DNA of 64,000 nucleotides from Dehalococcoidia bacterium (GTDB lineage: Bacteria; Chloroflexota; Dehalococcoidia; Bin125), in NCBI GenBank assembly GCA_963663895.2, contig CAXXRD010000002.1:349889-413888 (forward strand), given 5' to 3'. The position numbers were made by a program, and so were the translations under genes. The notes under the pieces were generated by a model. The model was not told the DNA's origin. It made no database searches and worked only from the letters and a program-made list of their open reading frames with translations. Positions within the stretch are counted from its first letter, which is position 1; every line of letters starts with the position of its first letter. This document shows, in pieces, positions 5,563-27,726 of the stretch.

Positions 5563-6501
5563 GTGGGCCCTTTTCCCTATGATCACTCCATGGACGCGCC
5601 AGTCATTGAGGTCCGGGGCCTGCGGAAGCGATACGGCGCGATCGAGGCGGTTCGCGGCGTCGATCTGCAGATCGAGCACGGGGAAGTCTTCGCGCTCCTT
5701 GGTCCGAACGGCGCGGGCAAGACGACGACCGTTGAGATCCTCGAAGGACATCGGGCGCGCTCCGGCGGCGAGGTGCGCGTGCTCGGCTACGACCCCGAGC
5801 GGAATCCGGTCGCGCTCAAGCAGCGCCTCGGCATCGTGCTGCAACGCACTGGCCTCGAGCCGTACTTGACCGTCGCGGAGACGATCGACATGTTTCGCGG
5901 CTACTACCCGCAGCCGCTGCCGCTCGACGACGTGCTCGCGGTCGTCGGGCTGGAGGAGCAGCGCGACCAGCGGGTGCGGCGGCTCTCGGGCGGACAGCAG
6001 CGGCGGCTCGATGTGGCCGTTGGCCTGGCCGGGGATCCGACGCTGCTCTTCCTCGACGAACCGACGACGGGCTTCGACCCGACGGCGCGGCGCGGCGCCT
6101 GGGCGATGATCCGCAACCTGCGCACGCTCGGGAAGACGGTCCTGCTGACGACGCACTACCTCGATGAAGCGGAGGCCCTCGCCGATCGCGTCGCGATCAT
6201 GGTGCGCGGCGCGATCGTGGCCGAGGGCACGCCGGCAGGGCTGGTCGCAGCGGACACAGGGACGGTCATCCGCTTCCGCCTCCCAGAGGGAGCGACGCTG
6301 CCCGAGGAATTCGGGCGCCACGAGACGACCGCAGGACACGTGGAGATCCGCACGCCGGATCCGACGCGCGTCCTGCACGCCCTCACAGACTGGGCAATCG
6401 CCGCGGGCATCGCGCTGGAAGGTCTCACGGTGCGCCGCAGCTCGCTCGAAGACGTGTTCCTGCGGCTGACGGGCGAAGAGGAGAGCAGGGACGCGTCGTG
6501 A
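5563..6501 (+). CDS. ABC transporter ATP-binding protein (ABC-2/DrrA-type exporter)
   Basis: LLGPNGAGKTT Walker A, LSGGQQRRL signature and LLFLDEPTTGFD Walker B. GTG start at 5563, with an alternative ATG at 5590 (MDAPVIEVRGL...). Confidence 0.9.
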   Translation: MGPFPYDHSMDAPVIEVRGLRKRYGAIEAVRGVDLQIEHGEVFALLGPNGAGKTTTVEILEGHRARSGGEVRVLGYDPERNPVALKQRLGIVLQRTGLEPYLTVAETIDMFRGYYPQPLPLDDVLAVVGLEEQRDQRVRRLSGGQQRRLDVAVGLAGDPTLLFLDEPTTGFDPTARRGAWAMIRNLRTLGKTVLLTTHYLDEAEALADRVAIMVRGAIVAEGTPAGLVAADTGTVIRFRLPEGATLPEEFGRHETTAGHVEIRTPDPTRVLHALTDWAIAAGIALEGLTVRRSSLEDVFLRLTGEEESRDAS

Positions 6502-7274
6502 GGGCGCTTGGACTCGCCCTGCGCCAGCTCAAATATGAGGAGCGATCCTTCCGGCGCAACCCAGCGGCGGCGTTCTTCACGCTCGCGTTCCCCCTCGTCT
6601 TCCTCGTCATCTTCACCGCCATCTTCGGGAACCGCGATACCGATCTCGGCGGCCGCGTGGTCAGCGGCGCCACTTTCTATGTGCCCGCGATCGTGGCGCT
6701 GACGGTGGTGAACTCGTGCTACACGTCGCTCGCGATGAGCTGGGTGTATAACCGCGACGCGGGCGTATTGAAGCGCATCCGCGGAACCCCCCTGCCGCCG
6801 TGGGCGTTCCTCTTCGGGCGCATCGCCTACGTCGTCCTCGTGATGCTGGCTCTGACGGTGATCGTGGTGGCGTTCGGGCGGATCGCCTACGGCGTCGCAC
6901 TGCCGGGGGCGACGCTGCCGGCGGTGCTCGTGACGCTGGCCGTGGGAGCGTTTGCCTTCTGTGCCCTGGGGCTGGCGATCGCGACGGTGATCCCCAACGC
7001 CGACGCCGGACCAGCCATCGTGAACGCGTCGATTCTTCCCCTGCTGTTCATCTCCGACGTCTTCATCCCTCCCGGTGTCGGCGCGCCCGCTTGGGTCGGA
7101 CACGTGAGCGCCGTCTTCCCCGTACGGCATCTCTCGGAAGCGCTGCAGACGGGCTTCAACCCCTTCGAGGCGGGCGCGGGTTTCGAGCCGGTGCATCTGG
7201 GCGTGCTCGCCGCCTGGGGAGTGGCCGGGTTGGTCGTTGCGCTGCGCTTCCCCTCGTGGGAGCCGCGTGCCTGA
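6498..7274 (+). CDS. ABC-2 type transporter permease
   Basis: GTGA start/stop overlap with the ATPase. A hydrophobic multi-TM protein of 258 aa, typical of ABC-2 permeases. Confidence 0.85.
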   Translation: MRALGLALRQLKYEERSFRRNPAAAFFTLAFPLVFLVIFTAIFGNRDTDLGGRVVSGATFYVPAIVALTVVNSCYTSLAMSWVYNRDAGVLKRIRGTPLPPWAFLFGRIAYVVLVMLALTVIVVAFGRIAYGVALPGATLPAVLVTLAVGAFAFCALGLAIATVIPNADAGPAIVNASILPLLFISDVFIPPGVGAPAWVGHVSAVFPVRHLSEALQTGFNPFEAGAGFEPVHLGVLAAWGVAGLVVALRFPSWEPRA

Positions 7275-7416: not shown

Positions 7417-8655
7417 CTAGCGGCCCTCGCCGCGCTCGACCACCGGCTCGCCCCCCAACACCACCATGCGGATCCGCTCCGCCTCCTCCAAGATCCCGAT
7501 CTCCGCGACCGGATCTCCGTCAACCACGAGCAGATCCGCCAGCTTTCCCTCCTCCACCGTCCCGAGCGCATCGCCCATCCCCACGATCCCTGCGTTGGTC
7601 GCCGTTGACGCGACCAGCGCCCCCATCGCTCCCAGCACCCGCGCCTTGAACCGCAGCTCCCGCGCCTTCAGCGGCTGGTGCAGGCCGAGCAGATCCGACC
7701 CCGACCCGATCGCGACCCCAGCGTCCCGGGCGATCTCCAACGACGTGTAGGCCTCCGTCAGCGCCTCTTCGATCTTGCGCACGCTGTTCTCCGGCACCCC
7801 GTGCTCCCTCCCCTCCGCCGCGATCAGCTCGTACACCGCCAGCGTGGGCACCAAGTAGGTGCCGCTCGTCTGCAGGAGCGGCGCGGTCGCCTCATCCAAG
7901 AAATTTCCGTGCTCCAGCGTGCGCACCCCCGCCTCCACGCAATTGCGCATGCTCTGCGGCGTGTAGGTGTGCGCCATCACGTATTTCCCCGTCGCCTTTG
8001 CCTCCGCCACCGCCGCCCCCAGTTCCTCGACCGTGAACTGCGTCGACCACATGTCGTCCGTGGGCGACACCGCCCCCCCATTCGCCATCACCTTTACCTG
8101 GTCCGCCCCCCGTCGCAGCACCTCCCGCGCCGCCCACCGCACCCGCTCCGGCCCGTCCACCACCAGGGACGGACAGTACACGCCGGGGTTGTAGGGCGGC
8201 GCCCGCGTGTCGTTCTCGCGGCGGAAGTCTCCGTGGCCGCCCGTCTGCGAGATCCAGCTGTTGCAGATAAAGAGCCGCGGCGCCCGGATCAGGCCCCGCG
8301 CGGCCGCGTCTTTGTAGCCCCAGTCGAGCCCGCCCGCGTCGCGCACGCTCGTGAACCCCGCCGCCAGGGTCGCCTCGATGTTGCGCGTCACCCGCAGGGC
8401 GTACACCGCCGGCGCCTGCCGCTGCGCCGAGCTCACTTCGAAGTCGACAAGCGCCAAATGCGCATGCGCGTCGATCAGCCCCGGCATCAGCGTCCGCCCG
8501 GCACAGTCGACCACGCGATCCGCGCGCCTGCGCAGCGAGCCCGCCGCTCCAATCTTGGCGATCCGCCCGTTCTCCACCAGGACGGCCCGCTCGGGCTGCG
8601 GATCGCGTCCCGTGCAATCGAGCACCTGCGCGTGTTCGAAAAGGATGCTGCTCAT
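7417..8655 (-). CDS. amidohydrolase family metal-dependent hydrolase
   Basis: MSSILFEHAQVLDCTG...GRTLMPGLIDAHAHL, with the HxH metal motif. I trimmed the start to the internal ATG at 8655. The ORF-track N-terminal extension is Arg/Gly-rich read-through. Confidence 0.85.
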   Translation of the reverse strand: MSSILFEHAQVLDCTGRDPQPERAVLVENGRIAKIGAAGSLRRRADRVVDCAGRTLMPGLIDAHAHLALVDFEVSSAQRQAPAVYALRVTRNIEATLAAGFTSVRDAGGLDWGYKDAAARGLIRAPRLFICNSWISQTGGHGDFRRENDTRAPPYNPGVYCPSLVVDGPERVRWAAREVLRRGADQVKVMANGGAVSPTDDMWSTQFTVEELGAAVAEAKATGKYVMAHTYTPQSMRNCVEAGVRTLEHGNFLDEATAPLLQTSGTYLVPTLAVYELIAAEGREHGVPENSVRKIEEALTEAYTSLEIARDAGVAIGSGSDLLGLHQPLKARELRFKARVLGAMGALVASTATNAGIVGMGDALGTVEEGKLADLLVVDGDPVAEIGILEEAERIRMVVLGGEPVVERGEGR

Positions 8656-9697: not shown

Positions 9698-9818
9698 GCG
9701 CGCCGATCCGGTGCGGAGGCAAGAGACGCCGCCCTCGCCGGGGATGGCTGCTACGCTTTTGGTCGCCGACTGAAACCCTCCGGCCGAGGCACTCGGCCGG
9801 AGTTGCGAGGAATACGGA

Positions 9819-11348
9819 TTGGCTGCGACCGAGAGCCTCGCATCTGCCGCGAATCCCCCCACCTGGGTCAAGATCATCGACCAACAGCGCTGCATCGGCT
9901 GCCATGCGTGCAGCGTCGCCTGCAAGGCCGAGAACGATGTCCCCTTGGGCGTCCATCGCACCTTCGTGAAGGAGGTCGAGGTTGGACGGTTCCCCAGCGT
10001 AGCGCGCAGCTTCCAAGTCACCCGCTGCAACCAATGCGAGAACGCGCCCTGCACCAGCGTGTGCCCCACGCGGGCGATGTACCGCCGGCCCGACGGCATC
10101 GTCGACTTCGACCGGGCCATCTGCATCGGCTGCAAGGCCTGCCTGAACGCCTGCCCCTACGACGCGATCTACATCGATCCGGTATCGCGGAGCGCGGAGA
10201 AATGTAACTTCTGCGCGCACCGCATCGACCGCGGTCTCGAGCCCGCCTGCGTCTCCGTTTGCCCCACGGAGGCGATCATCGTGGGAGACCGGCGGCGCCC
10301 ATCCGCCGCCCTGAGCCGGTACCTCGGGGATCGCGACCTGCGCGTGCGCAAGCCGGAACGCGGCACGCATCCGAAGCTCTTCTATCACGGTGGGGACGGT
10401 CGCGGGCTCGACCCGCTGATCACGGATCTCACCCGCCCGCGCGCCGCGACCGAGCGGCCGATCGGCGCCACGGTCACGCAAGCGGCGGCGATCATGGGCG
10501 ACGGCGGCGCGCGCGCGGCGCCATGGGGCTGGCGGATCTCCGCCTACACCTGGACGAAAGCGGTGGCGGCGGGGCCGTTCCTGCTGTGGCCGTTCCTGGC
10601 GCTCGGCATGACGCTCGAACGGCAAGCGTGGACGCTCCCCCTGGCGGCGATCGCCGCCACGGGGCTCGCGCTCACGGTCGCGTTGCTGGTAGCGGATCTC
10701 ACGCACCCGAAGCGCTTCTACCGCATGCTGGTGCAGCCGCACTGGCGCTCGTGGCTCGTGCGGGGCGGGGTCGCGCTCCTGCTGGCCTCCGCGGGCGTCG
10801 GCCTATTCTTGATCGCCGGGCTGGTCAATTCCAGCGTATTCATCACGGCAGCGGGGTGGCTGCTGCTTCCACTGGCGCTGGGGCTCGCCGGCTACACCGC
10901 CTTCCTCTTCCGCGACAGCAAAGGGTGCCGGCTCTGGCAGAGCCCGCTGCTTCCCCTGCATCTCCTCGTGCAAGCAGCCGTGATCGGGGCCGGGGTCCTC
11001 GTGTTGGTAGAGAGCGCGGCGCAGCTTCCCTGGTCCGACCTGCGCGCGCTGGTGGGGATCTTGCTCGCCGGATCGCTCTTGCACACGGCCCTGATCGTCA
11101 GTGAGTTCGCGCTGTCCAACCACGAAGCCGAGAGCCGTGCGGCCCTGCAGGCGCTGCGGCGCGGGCGCTTGCGAGGCTGGCTGTGGCTGGGAGCGGGCGG
11201 CGTCGCGCTGGGGATCGGGCTCGCCGTCGTGAGTTTGTCGATGGCGGAGCCCGTCGCGGCGTACGTGGCGGCGGGTGTCGTGATCGCGGCGATCGGCGCC
11301 TACGAGCATGCGTACGTGCAGGCGGGGCAGTCCGTCCCGCTGGCTTGA
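9819..11348 (+). CDS. 4Fe-4S dicluster protein fused to an NrfD/PsrC-like integral membrane domain
   Basis: The N-terminus has four Cys clusters (CIGCHACSVACK, CNQCENAPC, CIGCKACLNACP, CNFCAHR...C..CP), like DMSO-reductase-family B subunits. The C-terminal roughly 300 aa are multi-TM. TTG start with GAGGA 7 nt upstream. Confidence 0.85.
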   Translation: MAATESLASAANPPTWVKIIDQQRCIGCHACSVACKAENDVPLGVHRTFVKEVEVGRFPSVARSFQVTRCNQCENAPCTSVCPTRAMYRRPDGIVDFDRAICIGCKACLNACPYDAIYIDPVSRSAEKCNFCAHRIDRGLEPACVSVCPTEAIIVGDRRRPSAALSRYLGDRDLRVRKPERGTHPKLFYHGGDGRGLDPLITDLTRPRAATERPIGATVTQAAAIMGDGGARAAPWGWRISAYTWTKAVAAGPFLLWPFLALGMTLERQAWTLPLAAIAATGLALTVALLVADLTHPKRFYRMLVQPHWRSWLVRGGVALLLASAGVGLFLIAGLVNSSVFITAAGWLLLPLALGLAGYTAFLFRDSKGCRLWQSPLLPLHLLVQAAVIGAGVLVLVESAAQLPWSDLRALVGILLAGSLLHTALIVSEFALSNHEAESRAALQALRRGRLRGWLWLGAGGVALGIGLAVVSLSMAEPVAAYVAAGVVIAAIGAYEHAYVQAGQSVPLA

Positions 11349-11372: not shown

Positions 11373-14300
11373 ATGACCGGTGATCCCACTCCTCCGCCCC
11401 ATAGCGGCGTACTGCGCGCCGGACCGGAGCTCGCCGAGTGGAAGCACTGGACCGAATGGGACGCGCGCGCCTGGCCCGAGCGGAAAGAGCGCGCCTACCA
11501 GCTGGTGCCCACGGTCTGCTTCAACTGCGAAGCGGCTTGCGGATTGGTGGCGTTCGTCGACAAGTCGACGGGCGCGATCGCCAAGTTGGAGGGACACCCG
11601 CTGCACCCGGCGAGCCGCGGCCGCAACTGCGCCAAAGGGCCGGCCACGCTCGCCCAGGTGCAGAATCCGGATCGCATTCTCTATCCCCTGCGGCGCGTCG
11701 GGCCACGCGGATCGGGCCGCTGGGAGCGCGTCACGTGGGAGGCGGCCTTGGACGATCTGGCCGCGCGGATCCGGGAGGAGCTGCTGGCCGGCCGCCGCGA
11801 CCGGATCGTCTACCACGTCGGGCGGCCCGGAGAGGACCTCTACACGGAGCGGGTCCTGGCGACTTGGGGCGTCGACGGGCACAACTCGCACACGAACGTC
11901 TGCTCGGCCGCCGCCCGCGCCGGCTACGCCTTCTGGATGGGGATAGACCGCCCGATGCCCGATCACGAGCGGGCGCGCTTCTTGCTCATGCTCAGCTCGC
12001 ACCTGGAAGCGGGGCACTACTTCAACCCCCAGGCGCAGCGGATCATCGAGGCCCAGGCGAGTGGCCGGGCGAAGCTCTGCGTGATCGACACGCGCCTCTC
12101 CAACTCCGCCGCGAAGGCCGACTACTGGCTCGCACCCTGGCCGGGCACGGAAGCGGCGCTGCTGCTCGCGGTCGCGAGCTTTCTGATCCGGGAAGACCGG
12201 TGCGACTGGGAGTTCGTGCGCCGCTGGACGAACTGGCGCCAGCTGCTCGGGGAGCGCGGCTACCTGGCCACCCTCCGGAGGAACGGGCGGATCCGCATCA
12301 TCCCCGCGGCGGATGACTTCGACGCGTTCAAGTCGCTGCTGGCAGAGCTCTACGCGCCCTACACGTTCGCGGCCGCCGCCGAGGAGTGCGGGGTCGCAGA
12401 GGAAACGCTCCAGGCCGTCGCGCAGGAGGTGGCGGCAGCCGGCTCCGGGCTGGCGACGCACGTCTGGCGCAACGCCGCGGCGGGCAACCGCGGCGGCTGG
12501 ATGGTGGCCCGCTGCCTCTTTTTGCTGAACGTCCTCACCGGATCAGTGGGAAGCGAGGGCGGGACGCTGCCCAATCAGTGGACGAAGTTCGTGCCGCAGC
12601 CCCACAGCATGCCGGCTCCGGTGCAGACCTGGAACGAAACTCTGTGGCCCGCCGCTTGGCCGCTGGCGCACTTCGAGCTGAGCTTCCTGCTGCCTCATCT
12701 GCTGCGTTCCCAGGAGCAGCAGATCGGCGTCTATTTCACGCGCGTCTACAACCCCGTCTGGACGAACCCGGACGGATTCGCCTGGATCGACCTGCTCTCC
12801 GACGAGCGCCGCATCGGCCTGCACGCGGCGCTCACGCCGGTCTGGAGCGAGAGCGCGCAGTACGCCGATTACGTGTTGCCGATGGGACTCGGCCCCGAGC
12901 GACACGACCTGCACAGCTACGAGACGCATGCGGCGCAATGGATCGGCTTCCGCCAGCCGGTGCAGCGGGTCGTGCGCGCGGACCGCGGGGAGACCGTGGA
13001 CTCCACGCTGGGCAGCAATGCGGGGGAGGTGTGGGAGGAGAACGAGTTCTGGATCGAGCTTTCGTGGCGGATCGATCCCGACGGGGCGCTGGGCATCCGC
13101 CGCCACTTCGCGTCGCCCTACCGGCCCGGCGCTCGGATCACGATCGAGGAGTACTACCGCTGGATCTTCGAGCACTCCGTGCCCGGCTTGCCGGAAGCGG
13201 CCGCCGCGGCCGAGGCGTCACCGTTGCAGTTCATGCGGGAGCGGGGCGCCTTCGAAGTGACACGGGATGTGTATCGCTTGCACGAGCAGCCCGTGGATGC
13301 CGCGCTCGCCGCGGCGGCGACCAGGCATGATGGCGCGCTCTGGACGGAGCAGCCGCCGCCCAAAGTGAACTTCGCTCCCATCCCGGGTCCCTTCCGGGAC
13401 GCGGAGGGGCGTGTGCGGATCGGCATCGTGGATGAATCCGGCACTGCCGTGCAAGGCTTCCCCACGCCATCGGGCAAGCTCGAGTTCTTTTCATCGACGC
13501 TGAACGATTGGGGCTGGCCGGAGTGCGCGATTCCCTTCTACCCGCTCACCCCGAAGCAGCGAGAAGAGACGTCCGCGCTCGTGAGCCAAGTCCATCCTTC
13601 CCAGATCGACACCACGGCGAATGAATACGTCCTGCTTCCCACGTTCCGCCTCCCAACGCTGATCCACAGCCGCACGAATGGGGCGAAGTGGCTGCACGAA
13701 CTCGCCCACGTCAACCCCGTGTGGATCCACCCGCAGGACGCCGCGCGAGTGGGCGTGACGAGCGGCGAGCTGGTCCGGGTGGAAACCGCGATCGGATCGT
13801 TCGTCGACCGCTGCTGGGTGACGGAGGCGCTCCGTCCCGGGGTCGTCGCTTGCTCGCATCACTTGGGCCGCTGGCGCTTGCAGGAAGAGCATGGCAGCGA
13901 TCGCTGGAATTCGTCCTTGGTATCGATCGAGCAAGAGATCGATCAAGAGAAGGAGATCTGGCGGATGCGGCGCCGCCACGGCGCCGGCCCTTTCCAAGGC
14001 GACCGAGACTCCGCGCGGATCTGGTGGTCGGACGGCGGCGTGCACCAGAATCTCATCTTCCCCGTACAGCCCGATCCGATTAGCGGGCAACACTGCTGGC
14101 ATCAGAAGGTGCGGCTGCGGCGCGCGACGGAGGATGCGTACGGCGAGATTACGGTCGACCAAGCAGCGGCGCGGCGCGTCTATGAGGACTGGCGCGCCTT
14201 GACCCGCTTCCCGACCGCCCAGCGCGAGCGCCGACCCTACTGGCTCCTGCGGCCGCTCAAGCCGCATCCCGACGCCTACCGGCGGGACGCGGCACCGTAA
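11373..14300 (+). CDS. molybdopterin (bis-MGD) oxidoreductase catalytic subunit
   Basis: 975 aa. N-terminal CFNCEAACG...C FeS motif followed by a typical MopB-family sequence. No twin-arginine motif is visible in the first 45 residues. Confidence 0.9.
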   Translation: MTGDPTPPPHSGVLRAGPELAEWKHWTEWDARAWPERKERAYQLVPTVCFNCEAACGLVAFVDKSTGAIAKLEGHPLHPASRGRNCAKGPATLAQVQNPDRILYPLRRVGPRGSGRWERVTWEAALDDLAARIREELLAGRRDRIVYHVGRPGEDLYTERVLATWGVDGHNSHTNVCSAAARAGYAFWMGIDRPMPDHERARFLLMLSSHLEAGHYFNPQAQRIIEAQASGRAKLCVIDTRLSNSAAKADYWLAPWPGTEAALLLAVASFLIREDRCDWEFVRRWTNWRQLLGERGYLATLRRNGRIRIIPAADDFDAFKSLLAELYAPYTFAAAAEECGVAEETLQAVAQEVAAAGSGLATHVWRNAAAGNRGGWMVARCLFLLNVLTGSVGSEGGTLPNQWTKFVPQPHSMPAPVQTWNETLWPAAWPLAHFELSFLLPHLLRSQEQQIGVYFTRVYNPVWTNPDGFAWIDLLSDERRIGLHAALTPVWSESAQYADYVLPMGLGPERHDLHSYETHAAQWIGFRQPVQRVVRADRGETVDSTLGSNAGEVWEENEFWIELSWRIDPDGALGIRRHFASPYRPGARITIEEYYRWIFEHSVPGLPEAAAAAEASPLQFMRERGAFEVTRDVYRLHEQPVDAALAAAATRHDGALWTEQPPPKVNFAPIPGPFRDAEGRVRIGIVDESGTAVQGFPTPSGKLEFFSSTLNDWGWPECAIPFYPLTPKQREETSALVSQVHPSQIDTTANEYVLLPTFRLPTLIHSRTNGAKWLHELAHVNPVWIHPQDAARVGVTSGELVRVETAIGSFVDRCWVTEALRPGVVACSHHLGRWRLQEEHGSDRWNSSLVSIEQEIDQEKEIWRMRRRHGAGPFQGDRDSARIWWSDGGVHQNLIFPVQPDPISGQHCWHQKVRLRRATEDAYGEITVDQAAARRVYEDWRALTRFPTAQRERRPYWLLRPLKPHPDAYRRDAAP

Positions 14301-20850: not shown

Positions 20851-21933
20851 ATGAAGCTTGGAGTGTTCTGCCTGCTCCCGCAGCGTGAGCAGTCCACGCC
20901 CCCGGAGCAAGTGTTCGCACAGACCGTCGAGCAGGTACAACTGGCCGAGGCGATCGGGCTCGACATCGCCTGGTTCGCGGAGCACCATTTCTCCAACTAC
21001 TGCCTGTGCGTGTCGCCGCTGGTGATGGCCGCCTACGTCGCCCCGATCACGAAGCGCATCCGGCTGGGCAGCGGGGTCGTGGTGCTGCCGCTGTACGACC
21101 CGGTGCGCCTAATCGAAGAGGTGGCCACCGTGGACGTGATGAGCGGGGGGCGCCTGGTGCTGGGCATCGGCAGCGGCTATCAGCCGTACGAGTTCGAGCG
21201 CTTCGGTCAAACGCTGGACGACTCGATCGATCGGTCGCTCGAGATCCTGGAGATGATGGAGCTGGCCTACGCGCAGGAGACCTTCTCCTACGCGGGGCAG
21301 TACTACCAGCAGCCGCCCACGGCGTTGGCGCTCAAGCCCGTGCAGCAGCCGATGCCCGAGATCTACGTGGCGGGGATGATGCGGGACGAGCGGATGCGCA
21401 AGCGCCTGGTGGAGAAGGGCTACGTCCCCCTGGCGCAACCGCGCTGGGGACCGCCCTCGATCATGGTGGAGACGCGGCGCGAGTTCGAGGCGATGCACCG
21501 CGCGCAGGGGAAGAGTGAATCCGACGTGCGGATGGCGGTGCTGCGCTGGCTGAACGTGACGGGGTCGCGCGAGGAGTCACTGGCGGCGGCCGACGCGCTG
21601 CGCTACACCTACCGGGTGGCGCTGGCCTGCCGGGGCGGCTACCAGCGGATGGACGGCGCGAGACACCGCGAGATCCCGGCCGAGGGGGAGCCCACGCTGG
21701 AGCAGATCGCGGAGTACGCCATGATCGGCGATGCCGAGAAGATCACCGACCAGATCGCCAATGAGGTCACGATGTACGGACCGACGCACATGTGCTTCTC
21801 GGTGGGGATGGGCGACCATGCCCGCTCGATGCGCAGCTTGGAGGTCCTGGGAGCCGAGATCATCCCGGCGCTGGAGCAGCGCCTCGGGCCGCTCGATGCG
21901 ATCGGAAGCTCGGGCAGCAACTCGGCGGGGTAG
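20851..21933 (+). CDS. LLM-class (luciferase-like) flavin-dependent oxidoreductase
   Basis: MKLGVFCLLP...AWFAEHHFSNY...GRLVLGIGSGY. Start trimmed to the ATG at 20851. Confidence 0.85.
   Translation: MKLGVFCLLPQREQSTPPEQVFAQTVEQVQLAEAIGLDIAWFAEHHFSNYCLCVSPLVMAAYVAPITKRIRLGSGVVVLPLYDPVRLIEEVATVDVMSGGRLVLGIGSGYQPYEFERFGQTLDDSIDRSLEILEMMELAYAQETFSYAGQYYQQPPTALALKPVQQPMPEIYVAGMMRDERMRKRLVEKGYVPLAQPRWGPPSIMVETRREFEAMHRAQGKSESDVRMAVLRWLNVTGSREESLAAADALRYTYRVALACRGGYQRMDGARHREIPAEGEPTLEQIAEYAMIGDAEKITDQIANEVTMYGPTHMCFSVGMGDHARSMRSLEVLGAEIIPALEQRLGPLDAIGSSGSNSAG
21725..21933. repeat. direct repeat R1 (3' end of the LLM gene)
   Basis: About 90 percent identical by eye (roughly 20 mismatches in 209 nt) to 22845-23053. 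Both copies end at the TAG stop. Confidence 0.85.
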
Positions 21934-21980: not shown

Positions 21981-22610
21981 CTAGCGTTTCCCACTCGCCG
22001 TCTTGGCGACCACCTGCACCCCCTGAATCACCCCTTCGACGGATCGCCGCACGCGCACGGCAGCCGCTTCACTGACCTCGCCCGCGCCTTCAATGGCGCC
22101 GGTCGCGGCAGCCGACGCGGCATCCTCCACGCTTATTCCCGTCCTTTTGGCAGCCTCGATCGCGCCTTCCACCGCTCCCACGGCCGCGGTCGTCACGTCG
22201 GCGCCGATCATGGCGGCTTCATGGACGGCCGCCCGGCTGGTCTTGCCGATCGCCTCCACCGACTCCGCTCCGACCTCGGAGGACCCTTCCACGGCGCCGA
22301 TCACCGCGCCCTTGGCGGCGTTGCCCACGGAGCTGCCGACCTGGGTCGCGGCCTCGACCGTCGCGGTGAGGGTGGTGGCCGCCGTCTGCGCCGCCTCGCC
22401 GCCGATGTCGCCCACGGCGTCAATCGCTCCCTTGACGGCTCCCACGCCCAGGTTGGCCGCCGCACCACCGGTCTCACCGGTCTCTTTCACCGTCGAGCGC
22501 ACGAAGCTGGCCACCTCACTCACAGCGGTGGTCGCTACCTCCCCCGTCCCCTTGATCATGCCGATGACGCTGCCTTTGACCCGATTCCCGATCTCGCGTT
22601 CGTCAACCAT
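21981..22610 (-). CDS. Ala/Gly/Val-rich repeat protein (209 aa), function unknown
   Basis: Recurrent units such as VGAVKGAIDAVGDIGGEA, KGAVIGAVEGSSEVGAES, VGAVEGAIEAAKRTG and TGAIEGAGEVSEAA. G/C-rich third positions on this strand. AAGGA-type RBS upstream. The plus-strand ORFs here are mirror artefacts. Confidence 0.65.
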   Translation of the reverse strand: MVDEREIGNRVKGSVIGMIKGTGEVATTAVSEVASFVRSTVKETGETGGAAANLGVGAVKGAIDAVGDIGGEAAQTAATTLTATVEAATQVGSSVGNAAKGAVIGAVEGSSEVGAESVEAIGKTSRAAVHEAAMIGADVTTAAVGAVEGAIEAAKRTGISVEDAASAAATGAIEGAGEVSEAAAVRVRRSVEGVIQGVQVVAKTASGKR

Positions 22611-22844
22611 CTCTATCGTCCTTTCAGAGGATTGCTTGCGGCAGCGAAATCATCGCCTTGAGGGCAGAGCACGCCGCCGGAGAGCCATCTCGTCCCACGA
22701 ACGGTCTGAATGCCTATGGTTTCAGACCGCTCCGGCAAGTGGGTCAAGTATAGGGCCCTGATTGTGCCCATGCGGGTCTGAGCAGACACGTCAGCCACGG
22801 CATAGCATTTTGCTTCCAGTGCGAATGAAACATAGACCAAGTCT

Positions 22845-23053
22845 TCGGCGACGCCGAGAAGATCACCGATCAGATCGCCAACGAGATCACGATGTACGGG
22901 CCGACGCACATGTGCTTCTCGGTGGGGATGGGCGACCACGCCCGCTCAATGCACAGCTTGGAGGCCCTGGGAGCCGAGAGCATCCCGGCGCTGGAGCAGC
23001 GTCTCGGGCCGCTGGACGCGGTTGGGAGCTCGGGCAGCGCCGCAGCGGGGTAG
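22845..23053 (+). pseudogene. orphan 3' fragment of an LLM-class oxidoreductase (direct repeat R2)
   Basis: Encodes ...GDAEKITDQIANEITMYGPTHMCFSVGMGDHARSMHSLEALGAESIPALEQRLGPLDAVGSSGSAAAG*, paralogous to the end of 20851..21933. In-frame stops lie immediately upstream. Confidence 0.75.
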
Positions 23054-23171
23054 CGGGAAGCTGGGCGTTATCGCACTGCACTCCTGCGGTTTATGGCCGA
23101 AGGCTGCCCTTCCAGGTCACGTTTGGGATTCAGGCCGTCGGTCAAGAACCATCTTCAACCGACCTCGCCCC

Positions 23172-23804
23172 TTACTCAACGGCCAGGCAGAAATAACGAA
23201 ACTCGCCGTACTGTCCCGGGAGCTGGGAGTAAGGAAGCCAGCGGCAGCGGTAGTCTCTAACCAAGCGCAGAGGTTGCCTCCTTCCCTTCGTCGTGCCGGG
23301 TCCGGCTTTCGGTCCCCAAGTTAACTCTCCAGACAGGAGACGGCCTTCGTGCAGGCGAAAGTCTGCATCGGCTGTGTTTTGTCTGCCTGGGTTCCAGTAG
23401 AGGGGATCGTTGGTCATGGCAACGACGTAGCCGCGGTTGGCATGGCCCAAGCGAACGATGCGCTCAACGCGTACCAGATCCTTAATGAAATCGTAGCGAG
23501 AGATATCGTATGCGGCCTGATCGGCAAGATCGAAGCGCTCCCCTTCCGAGATCACGTGCAGGACGCGTTTCCAGTACTTCAGCTCGAGGTAGCTCGTGAT
23601 CCCTGCCTCTTGGATCCAGAGGTCTGCATAAGTGCGTCGCTCCCCGGAGGGGAGCGGGTATTCAAGACGAACCTTGGCTTCCGGCGCATGCTGCTGCCAC
23701 TGCCAGGCGAACGCGAATTGGAAGTCCGCCTCGGAATGGAAGATGGGACGGTGGGAGGCGAGCTCGAAGAGGACTGCGGCTAAGTCACTCGGGCCGGTGT
23801 TCAT
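23172..23804 (-). CDS. hypothetical protein with a PD-(D/E)xK nuclease-like motif set
   Basis: SEADFQFAF ... RTYADLWIQ ... SYLELKYWK matches the E / D / ExK arrangement of restriction-endonuclease-fold proteins. The region is low in G+C. Confidence 0.6.
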   Translation of the reverse strand: MNTGPSDLAAVLFELASHRPIFHSEADFQFAFAWQWQQHAPEAKVRLEYPLPSGERRTYADLWIQEAGITSYLELKYWKRVLHVISEGERFDLADQAAYDISRYDFIKDLVRVERIVRLGHANRGYVVAMTNDPLYWNPGRQNTADADFRLHEGRLLSGELTWGPKAGPGTTKGRRQPLRLVRDYRCRWLPYSQLPGQYGEFRYFCLAVE

Positions 23805-24436
23805 CGCTATCCTTCGGCATCGAGCCGAAACGTCAGGTCGCTATTAGGAGGCTTCTTCCCTCTACCCCCTTCTCTTTGAGGAGGTCAGCGCTGCCTTCGG
23901 GTGTCGGGTACAGTTCTCTGATTATGACGAGAAGACCATAGAGGTCCTCGTACGTGAGGAAGTTTACCGCTCTGCGAGGTACCGAATCGCCTTCTCGTGC
24001 TTCTTGACCACGAATCGGCCGATTCTCTCGACCTGCTTCTGGCGAGGAGTTTTCGGAGTCCATCCCGGCTTGGCCTTTGCAGTGCGCGCGCGTCCTGCAG
24101 CGTCGGAAGTCTGAGAACTCACAAGACGGCCCTTCCCCTAAAGCGGCGGAATTCTAGCACGGAAATTGTGTATGCATTTTACGACACGACCTCCCAACCC
24201 CGCCGCCGCTTGTCGCACATCTGCCACGCTGATACGCGGTACACCAGCTCGATCACGTCAAGCGCATGGACATTGTGAAGGCCTTCGAACTCTCTGATCA
24301 GCGAGCGCGTTTCCGGTGAGTTGGCACCAAGGCCCCACGATTAACCGCTGCCGATGGGCGCGCGGACGGCTCCAGATGCTTGGGATGCGAGCTGGCGATG
24401 CCGCGCGTGCGAACCGCAATCACTTCGGTGTCGTAG

Positions 24437-24526
24437 TGGCGGAGGGGGAGGGATTCGAACCCCCGAGACGCCGAGGCGTCTAGCGGTTTTCAAGACCGCC
24501 GCAATCAGCCGCTCTGCCACCCCTCC
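24437..24526 (-). tRNA. tRNA-Ser: tRNA-Ser (anticodon UGA), CCA encoded
   Basis: The reverse complement GGAGGGGTGGCAGAGCGGCTGATTGCGGCGGTCTTGAAAACCGCTAGACGCCTCGGCGTCTCGGGGGTTCGAATCCCTCCCCCTCCGCCA folds as a cloverleaf. It has a 7-bp acceptor stem, a CUUGAAA anticodon loop, a long variable arm and a TTCGAAT T-loop. It is closely parallel to E. coli tRNA-Ser(UGA). Confidence 0.92.
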
Positions 24527-24540
24527 GTGCCTTCCGATAG
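24483..24540. repeat. direct repeat, left copy (tRNA-Ser nt 1-44 plus about 14 nt of 5' flank)
   Basis: The 45 nt gcggttttcaagaccgccgcaatcagccgctctgccacccctccg are identical to 26013-26057. The following roughly 14 nt are similar. Confidence 0.85.
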
Positions 24541-24633
24541 TAGTGCCCGCATGAGCGTCGTATTGTGTGTACTTGGCGATCCTGTGATCAGACGCCGCTA
24601 CGAAGACGATTTCGCTCACTAGGAGGGATTGCG

Positions 24634-26007
24634 ATGGCGGAAGAGCTCGTATTCGCAGTCGGTAAGGGCGGGGCTCAGCGAGCTCAAGCGATCAGCCTCG
24701 CGGAAGCCGGCCTTCGTGAGCGATCTGACTTGCAGGAATGGGTTCGCACGAATCCTGAAATCTTGGGGCCTGACATCCGCATCGTTACCTTTGAGTTCAG
24801 CGGCTGGCAGAGTCGTGTAGGTACCGCTTCAGACCGTCTCGACTTGTTAGGGATCGACGCGGATGGTCGACTGGTCGTTGCTGAATTGAAGCGCGGGCCG
24901 GCACCCGATACAACTGAGATGCAGGCGATCAAGTACGCCGCGTTCGCCTCACGTTTCACCTCCGAGCAACTTGCTGAAAGCCACGCGAATTACCTCACCA
25001 AGGTAGAGGGAACAGCGATAGCTGCCGACGACGCCCAAGCGTTGCTGGAAGAACACATTGAGGGTGCACTCGAACAAGACCTGCTCCGGCGACCACGAAT
25101 CATCTTGCTGGCAACGGCCTTCAGTCCGCAAGTCACTGCCAGCGCGGTATGGCTCACAGAAATGGGCGTGGATATCGAGTTGATCGAGTTCAGCGCCCAT
25201 CGCACAGAGCGTGACCTGATCCTAACTGTCACATCGGTATGGCCGGTGAGTGATGTCGAAGAGTTCACCGTAAGACCAGGACGGGACAAACAACGGGCAG
25301 CGGTCGAGCGATCTCAGGGACGGCGAGAGGCTAACGCGGTAACCACACTCATCGCTGAGCAGACGCTTCCGGATAGCGAACGACTGGAGCTTAGATGGAC
25401 AGCACTCCCGTTGCCGGTACGTGATGCAGTGCAGGAATGGATTCGCACCGATCGTCAACGAGGACGTGCTACTTGGCGGAACAAGCTCCGCAGGCCGTTG
25501 GTGTGGAAACCCGATGGTACTTTTTGGAGTCCCACAGGCCTCGCTAGACACATCATTAGCGAAGCATCTGGTGAGAAGTACCGATCAGCGTTGCCAGGGC
25601 CACGACTATGGATCACGGAGGATGGAACGAGTCTTGCCGAGTTGGCCGGCTTCGGACGGAACTGGCCTGAAATCCATCGTCTACTAGCACTCGTTCAGCC
25701 GGGAACGTGGACGACCTCCGGGGATCTGGCAGAGGTGATTGGCCGATCCGCCCGAGCCGTAGGTCGGCATGTGACAGAGTGCTGGAAGTGCCCGGCCGCC
25801 CACCGCGTACTGACCAGCGACGGCAAGATAGCCCACGACTTCCGATGGACCACCGACCTGGAGGACGTTCGCGATCCGCGCGAGGTGCTGGAAAGCGAAG
25901 GTGTGAAGTTCCAGGATGGCGTGGCGAACGCAGAGCAGCGTGTCACAGCCGATGACTTCGCGAGCCTTCGTGAACAGTCGGCAAGCGTGGCTGCTCATGG
26001 AGCGTGA
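24634..26007 (+). CDS. NucS/DUF91-like PD-(D/E)xK nuclease domain fused to a C-terminal MGMT/ATL-like DNA-binding domain
   Basis: AGGAGG lies 7 nt upstream of the ATG at 24634. The N-terminus has SDLQEWVRTNPEILG...DRLDLLGIDADGRLVVAELKRG...QAIKYAAF. The C-terminus has TWTTSGDLAEVIGRSARAVGRHV...CPAAHRVLTSDGKI...VLESEGVKF, which parallels the MGMT family (YGdlA...aaRAVG...PCHRVv..dG...L..EGV). Confidence 0.75.
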   Translation: MAEELVFAVGKGGAQRAQAISLAEAGLRERSDLQEWVRTNPEILGPDIRIVTFEFSGWQSRVGTASDRLDLLGIDADGRLVVAELKRGPAPDTTEMQAIKYAAFASRFTSEQLAESHANYLTKVEGTAIAADDAQALLEEHIEGALEQDLLRRPRIILLATAFSPQVTASAVWLTEMGVDIELIEFSAHRTERDLILTVTSVWPVSDVEEFTVRPGRDKQRAAVERSQGRREANAVTTLIAEQTLPDSERLELRWTALPLPVRDAVQEWIRTDRQRGRATWRNKLRRPLVWKPDGTFWSPTGLARHIISEASGEKYRSALPGPRLWITEDGTSLAELAGFGRNWPEIHRLLALVQPGTWTTSGDLAEVIGRSARAVGRHVTECWKCPAAHRVLTSDGKIAHDFRWTTDLEDVRDPREVLESEGVKFQDGVANAEQRVTADDFASLREQSASVAAHGA

Positions 26008-26012
26008 TTACC

Positions 26013-26071
26013 GCGGTTTTCAAGACCGCCGCAATCAGCCGCTCTGCCACCCCTCCGCGCTTCCATCGTAG
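26013..26071. repeat. direct repeat, right copy: orphan 5' half of tRNA-Ser
   Basis: See 24483-24540. It starts 6 nt after the stop codon of 24634..26007. Confidence 0.85.
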
Positions 26072-26136
26072 TCCCTCGTAACCCAACCCTTGCGCCACGT
26101 CTGGGGTAGAGTCATGCGGCGCCGAGCAGCGGGAGA

Positions 26137-27726
26137 ATGCGGTTCGTGGTCGATCTGCTCATCAGCAACGGCACCATCATCGACGGCAGCGGCGAGCCGG
26201 GATTCGCCGGCACGGTCATCGTCGACGGCGACACGCTGGCCGTACGCCGCGGCGGGGCCGCTGAGCTGCGCGCGGCGCGGTCGATCGACGCGAGGGGCCG
26301 CGTCGTCTGCCCCGGCTTCATCGACCTCCACTCGCACGCCGGGCTGACCATCCTCGGCGCCCCCGAGCATGAGCCCAAGGTGCGGCAGGGCGTCACGACC
26401 GAGCTGATCGGGGTCGACGGGATCTCGCACGCGCCGTTCAAGAGCGCGGCGGAGCGCGACCGCTTCATCTGGATGGACTGCGGTCTGAACAGCTATCCCC
26501 CGGCGCCGGCGGATTGGCTGACCGTCGCCGACCTCCTGCAGAAGCTCGACAACGCCGTCGCGGTCAACATGGCCTTCATCCTGGGCAACGCGCCGCTGCG
26601 CATCTGGGCGGTCGGGTGGGAAGAGCGGCCGGCAACGGAGCGGGAGATCGCGGAGATGCGTTCGGTGCTGCGCGAAGCGAACGAGGACGGCGCCTGGGCG
26701 CTCTCGTCGGGGCTCGATTATCCGCCGGGCTCGTACGCGGACAGCCAGGAGCTGGCGGCTTTGATGGCGGAGGCGGCTCCCTTCGGCGGCTTCTACCACA
26801 CACATACGCGCTCGCAGCTTCGCCGCCGGGGAGCGCTGCGGCCCTGGGAAGAGGCGCTTGACATCGGGCGCATGAGCGGGGGCGCCGTCCACTTCACGCA
26901 CTACTATCAGCCGCTCGGCAGTCCGGCCCCGGCCGAGGCGTATCTGGGCCTCGTCGATGCCGCTCGCACGGAGGGAGGCGATGTCACCTTCGATTGCTAC
27001 ACCTACCCGTACTCCTCCACGACCGCCACGATCTTGATCCCCAGCTGGGCCAAGAACGGCGGCCCCGAGCGCCTCATGGAGGCGCTGCGCAACCCCAACG
27101 AGCGCGCGCGGATCAAGGAGGCGCTGACCAGCAAGGACCGGGTATTGCGCTGGGAGGTCGGCTGGCTGACCTCGTTCCGCCGGCCGGAGAACGCTCCCTA
27201 CGACGGACGGCTCATCCCGGAGATCGCGGCGATGCGCCAGCAGGAGCCGGCCGAGGCGCTGCTGGACCTCCTCCTTGAGGAGGAGCTGCACGTGACTTGG
27301 GTCGGGGCCTGGGTGACCGAAGCCACGATCCCGCACTTCGTGGCCCATCCCCAAGGGATGATCGCCAGCGATGCGATCGTCTTCGGCGATCGGCCCAGCC
27401 CCCGAACCTACGGCTGTTTCCCCCTGGTACTGGGCCGCTTCGTCCGCGAGGAGGGCCATCTCTCCCTGCCGGAGGCCATCCGCAAGATGACCTCGACCCC
27501 CGCCCGGCGCCTGGGCCTCCGCGACCGCGGTCTCCTGCGCGACGGCTATAAGGCGGACATCGTGATCTTCGACCCGGAAGCGGTCGATGCGCGGGCAACC
27601 CGGCAGACGCCGCGCGCCTACCCGGCCGGGATCGACTACGTCATCGTCAACGGCCGGGTCGTCATTGAGCGCGGCACGCATACCGGCGCCCTGCCGGGAC
27701 GCGCGTTGCGCCGCGGTCGGGACTAG
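26137..27726 (+). CDS. N-acyl-D-amino-acid deacylase (D-aminoacylase) family amidohydrolase
   Basis: LLISNGTIIDGSG...VCPGFIDLHSHAG is the characteristic N-terminus. 529 aa. Confidence 0.85.
   Translation: MRFVVDLLISNGTIIDGSGEPGFAGTVIVDGDTLAVRRGGAAELRAARSIDARGRVVCPGFIDLHSHAGLTILGAPEHEPKVRQGVTTELIGVDGISHAPFKSAAERDRFIWMDCGLNSYPPAPADWLTVADLLQKLDNAVAVNMAFILGNAPLRIWAVGWEERPATEREIAEMRSVLREANEDGAWALSSGLDYPPGSYADSQELAALMAEAAPFGGFYHTHTRSQLRRRGALRPWEEALDIGRMSGGAVHFTHYYQPLGSPAPAEAYLGLVDAARTEGGDVTFDCYTYPYSSTTATILIPSWAKNGGPERLMEALRNPNERARIKEALTSKDRVLRWEVGWLTSFRRPENAPYDGRLIPEIAAMRQQEPAEALLDLLLEEELHVTWVGAWVTEATIPHFVAHPQGMIASDAIVFGDRPSPRTYGCFPLVLGRFVREEGHLSLPEAIRKMTSTPARRLGLRDRGLLRDGYKADIVIFDPEAVDARATRQTPRAYPAGIDYVIVNGRVVIERGTHTGALPGRALRRGRD

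Follow-up and report, generated by a model that had tools for sequence, protein, structure and literature searches.

The window analysed here is a stretch of 64,000 nucleotides (nt) from a Dehalococcoidia bacterium (contig CAXXRD010000002.1), and our subject is a single gene on its plus strand, at positions 24634-26007, in which a nuclease is fused to an alkyltransferase-like (ATL) domain. We lean towards reading its product as a type IV-like restriction endonuclease that depends on DNA modification, works as one stand-alone polypeptide and belongs to the Madara/PDC-S11 nuclease clade. The function first guessed from the sequence, a type IV-like nuclease that is modification-dependent or triggered by damage, is the best supported because of the PDC-S11 membership of the nuclease domain and the restriction of modified T4 phage by Madara. 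The protein also has the composition of a type IV enzyme, combining a nuclease with a putative modified-base reader, and no cognate methyltransferase adjoins the gene.

The gene is an intact, uninterrupted open reading frame (ORF) encoding 457 residues followed by a stop codon. Reading the sequence directly, we found a Shine-Dalgarno-like GGAGGG on the plus strand at 24622-24627, 7 nt 5' of the ATG. The start codons of homologues coincide with the methionine at 24634, and this agreement makes an alternative, longer GTG start at 24565 unnecessary. A scan for promoters and terminators across 24300-26200 found none. The AlphaFold2 model of the whole protein reached a mean predicted local distance difference test (pLDDT) score of 86.8. 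The protein comprises three domains, a NucS-like nuclease, a middle domain and an ATL-like domain, with a C-terminal helix after them. The original prediction, made from the DNA letters and their translation, had described the nuclease and the ATL domain only; the AlphaFold2 models show that it overlooked a well-folded middle domain of about 100 residues (residues 242-340).

The nuclease domain and its relatives

Judged by its profile matches, the nuclease domain (residues 1-240; 24634-25353, plus strand) is a member of the PDC-S11/Madara family with a NucS-like catalytic core. The PDC-S11 profile of PADLOC matches residues 7-244 (E 2e-50, model positions 4-235 of 347), and five PDC-S11 models match. 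This affinity is far stronger than that for NucS, since the NCBIfam NucS model NF003270 matches residues 30-103 at E 5e-07, over model positions 130-196 only and with 29 bits against a cut-off of 216. The Pfam NucS_C model stays below threshold (E 0.14, 12.6 bits versus 24). We also compared the models with solved structures. In a Foldseek search of the PDB with the nuclease part of the AlphaFold2 model, EndoMS/NucS ranked first (5gke, E 1.5e-04, probability 1.00; 2vld was also recovered), followed by the defence nucleases SduA (Shedu), HamA (Hachiman), Card1 and Can2.

The candidate catalytic residues are D70 (24841-24843), E84 (24883-24885), K86 (24889-24891), Q97 (24922-24924) and Y101 (24934-24936), all on the plus strand. 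Among 70 aligned homologues, no substitution occurs at E54, D67, D70, E84, K86 or Q97, and Y101 is almost invariant. The D...ExK...QxxxY pattern on which the NucS-like nuclease had first been proposed is thus a real motif, conserved in these 70 homologues and agreeing with the top rank of EndoMS/NucS in the structural search. Mutated catalytic residues, which had been named beforehand as evidence against a nuclease, did not appear in the alignment, where the motif is invariant. The likeness to NucS/EndoMS comprises the fold of the catalytic domain and this motif. We rejected the protein as a bona fide NucS orthologue, as it scores far under the family cut-off and lacks the N-terminal domain with which NucS/EndoMS binds DNA at mismatches and dimerises.

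PDC-S11 entered PADLOC as a candidate single-gene system and was renamed 'Madara' in a September 2026 bioRxiv preprint (10.64898/2026.09.05.749240), which describes it as a divergent neighbour of BREX in E. coli ECOR34. Madara consists of an N-terminal NucS-like PD-(D/E)xK nuclease, a linker and a C-terminal EVE-like domain. It restricts wild-type T4, which carries glucosyl-hydroxymethylcytosine, as well as other Tevenvirinae, leaves T4(C) unaffected, and loses its defence activity upon the substitution D63A (10.64898/2026.09.05.749240). As a full-length representative of the family we took the Klebsiella protein WP_001240354, which matches the PDC-S11 model at E 5.8e-114 over positions 1-338 of 347. 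In a BLASTP comparison it aligns with residues 26-228 of the window protein (34% identity, E 2e-34), placing D63 opposite D70, and no similarity was detected between the C-termini of the two proteins. The window protein therefore resembles Madara in its homologous nuclease domain, in the correspondence of the essential D63 with D70 and in being a single-gene system. It differs in that a middle domain and an ATL-like domain stand in place of the EVE-like C-terminal domain, in its hosts (Chloroflexota and Actinomycetota rather than Enterobacteriaceae) and in having no BREX nearby.

The gene for WP_001240354 lies on the Klebsiella plasmid NZ_CP070438.1 (locus L090 of our set, 5935-6933), where it is annotated as 'hypothetical protein' and is divergent to brxA/B/C. 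This plasmid is a conjugative IncFII plasmid, and the PDC-S11/Madara gene and brxA/B/C are flanked by copies of IS1 and IS26. A tblastn search against plasmids found relatives of the nuclease domain on 357 records, 222 of them from Klebsiella and 41 from Escherichia; 155 were conjugative.

The alkyltransferase-like domain and the reader slot

The C-terminal domain (residues 347-424; 25672-25905, plus strand) has the fold of the MGMT DNA-binding domain and appears to be non-catalytic. Pfam PF01035 matches it at E 2e-07 with 31.2 bits, above the gathering score of 27. Foldseek with the C-terminus of the AlphaFold2 model returned archaeal OGT structures at probability 1.00, with a root-mean-square deviation of ~3.5 Å over ~86 columns. 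The MGMT/ATL assignment made by eye in the original prediction is borne out by both results. We built a profile from the C-terminal domains of 20 homologues; it matched S. pombe Atl1 best (3gva, E 2.6e-06), followed by the Vibrio parahaemolyticus ATL (2kif, 1.5e-05), so that both ATL structures outrank all catalytic MGMTs.

The profile alignment sets the family motif C-P-[NA]-A-[YH]-R-V against H-V-P-W-H-R-V of Atl1. In the window protein this motif reads C386-P-A-A389-H-R-V, and A389 (25798-25800) stands opposite Trp56 of Atl1, where MGMT has its cysteine. Across 61 full-length homologues, the acceptor column holds Ala (45), Gly (10), Val (2), Pro (2), Thr (1) or Arg (1), and never Cys or Trp. 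With no cysteine ever present in this column, MGMT-type alkyl acceptance is impossible for the domain, which for want of the acceptor cannot repair. An active MGMT was thus discarded as a candidate, also in view of TIGR00589 (ogt), which scores 15.4 bits against 46.4. From its sequence and predicted fold, the domain is ATL-like in the sense that it combines the MGMT fold with a missing acceptor cysteine, and the out-of-register cysteine remarked upon earlier holds throughout the family.

The alignment also accounts for that 'displaced' cysteine, as C386 (25789-25791; invariant, 61/61) belongs to a conserved H-x3-C-x2-C motif. The other two members, C383 (25780-25782) and H379 (25768-25770), are present in 60 and 59 of the 61 homologues, respectively, and the family-specific motif is written H-x3-C-x2(4)-C overall. 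H348 (25675-25677), in the first helix, is invariant in the 20-sequence domain alignment. None of the four residues occurs in the aligned Atl1 and MGMT sequences. Together, H348, H379, C383 and C386 may form a structural metal site that replaces the Asn-hinge loop, as their conservation suggests. The loop before the active site is presumably ~2 residues shorter than in human MGMT, as counted by eye.

The positions that serve base flipping in Atl1 can be aligned as well. At the Arg-finger position (R39 of Atl1), the window protein carries Arg374 (25753-25755), and the homologues carry Gln in 33, Arg in 22 and Met in 3 of the 61 sequences; R391 is also listed among the key residues of the domain. 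The base-flipping tyrosine (Y25 of Atl1) is a tyrosine in 59/61 homologues, and the window protein has Ser362 instead (25717-25719, TAC to TCC). It further carries an extra Thr406, arising from a duplicated ACC codon (25849-25851) that is lacking in 59/61 homologues, and a leucine in place of proline at 409 (P409L, 25858-25860), an otherwise conserved ATL position.

ATLs are stand-alone proteins of ~110 residues that pass lesions on to nucleotide excision repair. With S. pombe Atl1, E. coli YbaZ and the V. parahaemolyticus ATL, the window domain shares the MGMT C-terminal fold with its helix-turn-helix, the absence of the acceptor cysteine and alignable Tyr and Arg-finger positions, and ATLs are its best sequence matches among solved structures. 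In contrast to these proteins, it is one domain of a 457-residue nuclease fusion. Unlike Atl1, which has Trp at the acceptor position, the family has Ala or Gly there, mostly Gln at the Arg finger, and the additional H-x3-C-x2(4)-C motif with H348.

Between the nuclease and the ATL-like domain lies the middle domain (residues 242-340; 25357-25653, plus strand), which is compact in the models and reached a pLDDT of 90.9 and a predicted template-modelling score of 0.83 when modelled alone. W269, R276, W281, W291 and W326 are invariant in the homologue alignment. Eight members searched against Pfam gave no match at E up to 10. Its only structural match in the PDB is a weak one to the RAMA-DNA complex of MPND (7ydw_B, TM 0.53/0.58, probability 0.80, E 0.31); the structural search did not recover the RAMA domain of CcrM, and BFVD returned nothing. 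RAMA domains contact the backbone of the duplex irrespective of the DNA sequence; their structure is conserved, their own sequence poorly so (PMC9963953). The middle domain is possibly RAMA-like in its modelled fold, which would suggest non-specific binding of double-stranded DNA. A sequence relationship to the Pfam RAMA domain or to the other C-terminal modules is unsupported: hhalign probabilities are <1%, including against the Pfam-verified RAMA (PF18755) of homologue P0264, and 90 of 2000 shuffles reached the real score. Nor is the middle domain the C-terminal domain of Madara/PDC-S11, as the PDC-S11 models stop at ~235 in ten homologues with a middle domain or another module after the nuclease, and the C-termini are unrelated by BLASTP.

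We searched a nuclease-domain profile against 1.84 billion cluster representatives. It hit 4331 clusters (50% identity) at E up to 1e-3, 717 of them at E up to 1e-30. A sample of 102 representatives (101 hits of at least 300 residues and the window protein) was classified with our own domain profiles. The nuclease is followed by the middle domain in 51/102, by another C-terminal module in 37/102, by the middle domain and the ATL domain in 12/102, and by the ATL domain in 2/102. The middle domain, found in 63 of the 102, is accordingly the commonest partner of this nuclease. Pfam DNA_binding_1 was confirmed in 13/102. P0123 is an example in which the middle domain is missing and the ATL domain follows straight on the nuclease.

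In the proteins that lack the ATL domain, the remaining C-terminal parts sort into several unrelated clusters, placed either straight after the nuclease or after the middle domain. Examples of modules in the third slot are DUF4268 (P0125), DUF5655 (P0139), a Pfam RAMA domain following nuclease and middle domain (P0264, residues 332-421, E 1.4e-11) and a second, tandem middle domain (P0156). Homologues with swapped slots match PDC-S11 over the nuclease domain only. By these domain assignments, the family is one nuclease chassis with a swappable slot for DNA or base readers, and the ATL domain is one interchangeable reader. Modification-dependent restriction enzymes are characteristically organised in this way, with a swappable reader slot.

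A search with the whole protein gave 481 hits, mostly of ~450 residues and with PF01035, together with forms of ~345 residues that lack the ATL domain. The hosts of the three-domain form are Chloroflexota (Dehalococcoidia and Tepidiformaceae) and Actinomycetota, the latter including Brachybacterium, Actinotalea, Microbacterium, Aquihabitans, Actinoplanes, Blastococcus, Streptomyces and Serinicoccus. Databases name these proteins 'MGMT family protein' or 'alkylated DNA nucleotide flippase Atl1'. Among the genomes, a metagenome-assembled Dehalococcoidia genome (locus L004) comes closest, with a protein that is 90% identical.

The genomic setting

The gene lies next to a tRNA-Ser gene (anticodon UGA; 24437-24526, minus strand, called by ARAGORN), which is 107 nt upstream and divergent from it. 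A repeat search found a 48-nt direct repeat on either side. Its left copy (24483-24530) consists of the 5' half of the tRNA-Ser and 4 nt upstream of it, and the right copy (26013-26060), 98% identical and starting 5 nt past the stop codon, is an orphan fragment of the tRNA-Ser 5' half. BLAST against the L001 copy of this fragment extends the similarity to ~63 nt. As the repeats bracket the gene, the whole forms a 1.53-kb single-gene cassette, within which no integrase is encoded. The repeated segment is the 5' half of tRNA-Ser(UGA) and not the usual 3' part.

The same bracket occurs at the L004 locus (9853-9904 and 11377-11428). There, a second cassette lies across the tRNA, bracketed by the tRNA 3' part (8280-8346 and 9807-9873), and the spacings of the two cassettes are nearly equal at 1527 and 1524 nt. 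At a Streptomyces locus (L079), a 36%-identical homologue follows tRNA-Ser(GGA) (9800-9887) and is bracketed by a direct repeat of ~50 nt that contains a hairpin (9908-9957 and 11492-11540, spacing 1584 nt). Among the homologues, adjacency to a tRNA was seen in this lineage and at this one Streptomyces locus only. These brackets hint that the ATL-nuclease gene travels as a minimal repeat-flanked cassette.

Base composition also sets the gene apart. It lies in a low-GC tract (22650-26010, ~58-62% versus ~69% in the flanks) that also holds a 210-residue ORF, a 76-residue ORF and the tRNA-Ser. The gene itself has a GC content of 59.2% and a third-position value (GC3) of 0.60, compared with 0.80-0.90 for the in-frame neighbouring genes. 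At 25 of 29 loci, the GC content of the ATL-fused homologue is lower than that of its flanks, the average deficit being 3.4 points. No methyltransferase was called immediately beside the gene, either in the window or at five gene-called homologue loci. Atypical GC, the repeat bracket and the lack of conserved neighbours point to an accessory, horizontally moving gene and not to a core repair function; from its composition and bracket, the gene looks horizontally acquired.

The neighbourhood of the tRNA-Ser is a rearrangement hot spot. A 209-nt direct repeat (21725-21933 and 22845-23053, 90% identical) duplicates the 3' end of a long ORF ending at 21933, which we take, reading its sequence by eye, to be a luciferase-like monooxygenase. 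The two copies bracket an Ala-rich ORF of 209 residues (21981-22610, minus strand), which in L004 lies instead between the tRNA-Ser and the tRNA 3' fragment. The 210-residue ORF at 23172-23804 (minus strand) has 180 homologues, with which it makes up a conserved hypothetical family; Pfam, NCBIfam, PADLOC, PHROGs and the PDB gave no match. Inspection by eye shows a D...E-L-K pattern (YADLWI...YLELKYWK), on the strength of which the ORF may be another PD-(D/E)xK nuclease, and one of its homologues lies ~1.5 kb downstream of a GmrSD_N gene. A functional partnership with the ATL-nuclease is unlikely, as this ORF is missing from the syntenic L004 locus, whose nuclease fusion is 90% identical.

Probable modification-dependent restriction and its alternatives

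In the mechanism that we favour, the middle domain would grip duplex DNA non-specifically. The ATL-like domain would probe the duplex through its helix-turn-helix, flip a non-canonical purine into its pocket and, by analogy with ATL biochemistry, remain bound there. Bound protomers would then pair two NucS-like PD-(D/E)xK domains (D70/E84/K86), and the modified foreign DNA would be cut, a step modelled on NucS and on the effect of D63A in Madara. For the window protein, we infer the ligand, the dimerisation, the cleavage and the phage restriction alike.

The logic of this scheme has a tested precedent in END-Mag, a fusion of a NucS-like PD-DExK nuclease with an EndoIII/Ogg1 domain that has been inactivated; it restricts phages whose guanine is modified (PMC12191111). 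Compared by description, the two proteins are alike in coupling a nuclease to a catalytically dead, base-flipping repair domain as the sensor of a modified base; they differ in the sensor, which has the HhH-GPD glycosylase fold in END-Mag and the MGMT/ATL fold here. Modular modification-dependent enzymes, in which PUA, EVE, SRA, winged-helix or DUF3427 readers are fused to PD-(D/E)xK or HNH nucleases (PMC6765204, PMC11037411), likewise place reader and nuclease in one stand-alone polypeptide with no methyltransferase partner.

Several observations weigh against a modification-dependent restriction enzyme. To our knowledge, the only ligands of ATLs are O6-alkylguanines and close analogues, that is, lesions and not known phage modifications. 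The canonical ATL reader is departed from at the Arg finger, where on alignment only 22 of 61 family members keep Arg, and in the window protein S362, Thr406 and P409L may have weakened the reader. At the five gene-called homologue loci, neither a conserved operon partner nor a recognisable defence island was found, and the ATL-fused genes stand singly among unrelated metabolic genes, a setting unlike a classic multi-system defence island. Searches of plasmids, phages and viral contigs did not turn up the ATL-fused form, and PHROGs gave no match. Finally, the evidence on Madara comes from a preprint.

Some of these points speak for a DNA-repair enzyme, in which the ATL domain would find O6-alkylguanine in the host chromosome and the nuclease would nick nearby, giving excision independent of UvrABC. 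The only known ATL ligands fit such a role, as do the housekeeping surroundings free of defence neighbours. The closest solved relatives, Atl1 and the V. parahaemolyticus ATL, are genuine repair ATLs, the nuclease domain shares its catalytic fold with NucS/EndoMS, a repair nuclease, and the fusion occurs in Actinomycetota and Chloroflexota; we also count in its favour that many Actinomycetota use NucS in place of MutS/L. An enzyme of this kind would resemble AGT-EndoV and ATL-EndoV fusions, as well as the passing of lesions from ATLs to nucleotide excision repair. We nevertheless regard repair, the main alternative, as unlikely. The nuclease is far nearer to the defence family PDC-S11 than to NucS and lacks the NucS N-terminal domain, and in paralogues the reader slot is filled by unrelated modules such as RAMA or DUF4268. 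The patchy distribution, the lack of synteny, the atypical GC and the tRNA-flanked cassette also speak against repair, and a nuclease of the NucS type, which cleaves both strands, would be a hazard at lesions in the chromosome.

It is more improbable, in our estimate, that the protein is an abortive-infection or toxic effector, whose indiscriminate nuclease would be released by damaged or modified DNA or by phage breakdown products, so that the cell dies or arrests. The Madara authors leave this possibility standing (10.64898/2026.09.05.749240), and the structural neighbours SduA, HamA, Card1 and Can2 are compatible with it. However, no antitoxin, signalling gene or other partner is conserved next to the gene, and cleavage would more likely be local where the nuclease is tethered to a base reader bound to DNA. 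We give a similarly low, slightly smaller chance to a decaying reader in this particular genome, the gene being intact yet compromised remnant cargo of a degraded tRNA-Ser island, an explanation that is compatible with the other functions. The substitution Y362S, the Thr406 insertion and P409L all fall at conserved ATL positions. Relative to L004, synonymous and non-synonymous changes number 32:19 in the nuclease, 11:11 in the middle domain and 13:16 in the ATL domain, although these counts are crude and small, and no integrase is left in the cassette. On the other hand, the ORF is intact with every nuclease residue present, and the ATL changes could equally mean a shifted specificity.

Within the modification-dependent restriction enzyme that we prefer, a more specific and clearly more tentative proposal is that the ATL domain is the first known MGMT-fold reader of a phage hypermodification, trapping a non-canonical purine and thereby licensing the fused nuclease. 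Atl1 also binds 2,6-diaminopurine and 2-aminopurine. Candidate ligands would be 2-aminoadenine (Z), 7-deazaguanine derivatives and O6- or N2-substituted guanines in the genomes of actinophages and Chloroflexota phages. H348, H379, C383 and C386 would then bind a metal as a new structural site and so alter the shape of the pocket.

As for novelty, the original prediction had not recognised the combination as a described system, and this stands in part. In the literature searched, no paper connects NucS, type IV restriction or defence with an alkyltransferase-like or MGMT domain, none lists the MGMT/ATL fold as a reader domain, and the ATL fusion itself is undescribed there. The nuclease family, on the other hand, had already been listed and tested, the architecture of nuclease, middle domain and ATL domain is common in databases (the 481 hits above), and END-Mag is a tested precedent. 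What is new is the ATL/MGMT-fold reader; the chassis and the principle of coupling a reader to a nuclease were already known.

Most characterised modification-dependent enzymes read modified cytosines or N6-methyladenine through PUA/EVE, SRA, winged-helix or DUF3427 domains, and readers of modified purines, such as the END nucleases, are only starting to emerge. The ATL domain already is, as it stands, a non-catalytic trap that flips out and holds O6-substituted and 2-amino purines. Its occurrence on a validated defence nuclease scaffold in hundreds of actinomycetotal and chloroflexotal genomes widens the theme of inactivated repair domains serving as immune sensors, and the Madara/PDC-S11 nuclease emerges as a broad modular platform with many interchangeable C-terminal modules. 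The fusion gives a testable route to the ligand behind the orphan annotation 'MGMT family protein' and could supply enzymes that cut at alkylated or otherwise modified purines. If the ATL domain does read a phage hypermodification, these proteins would constitute a purine-directed family of type IV restriction enzymes and a new class of reagents.

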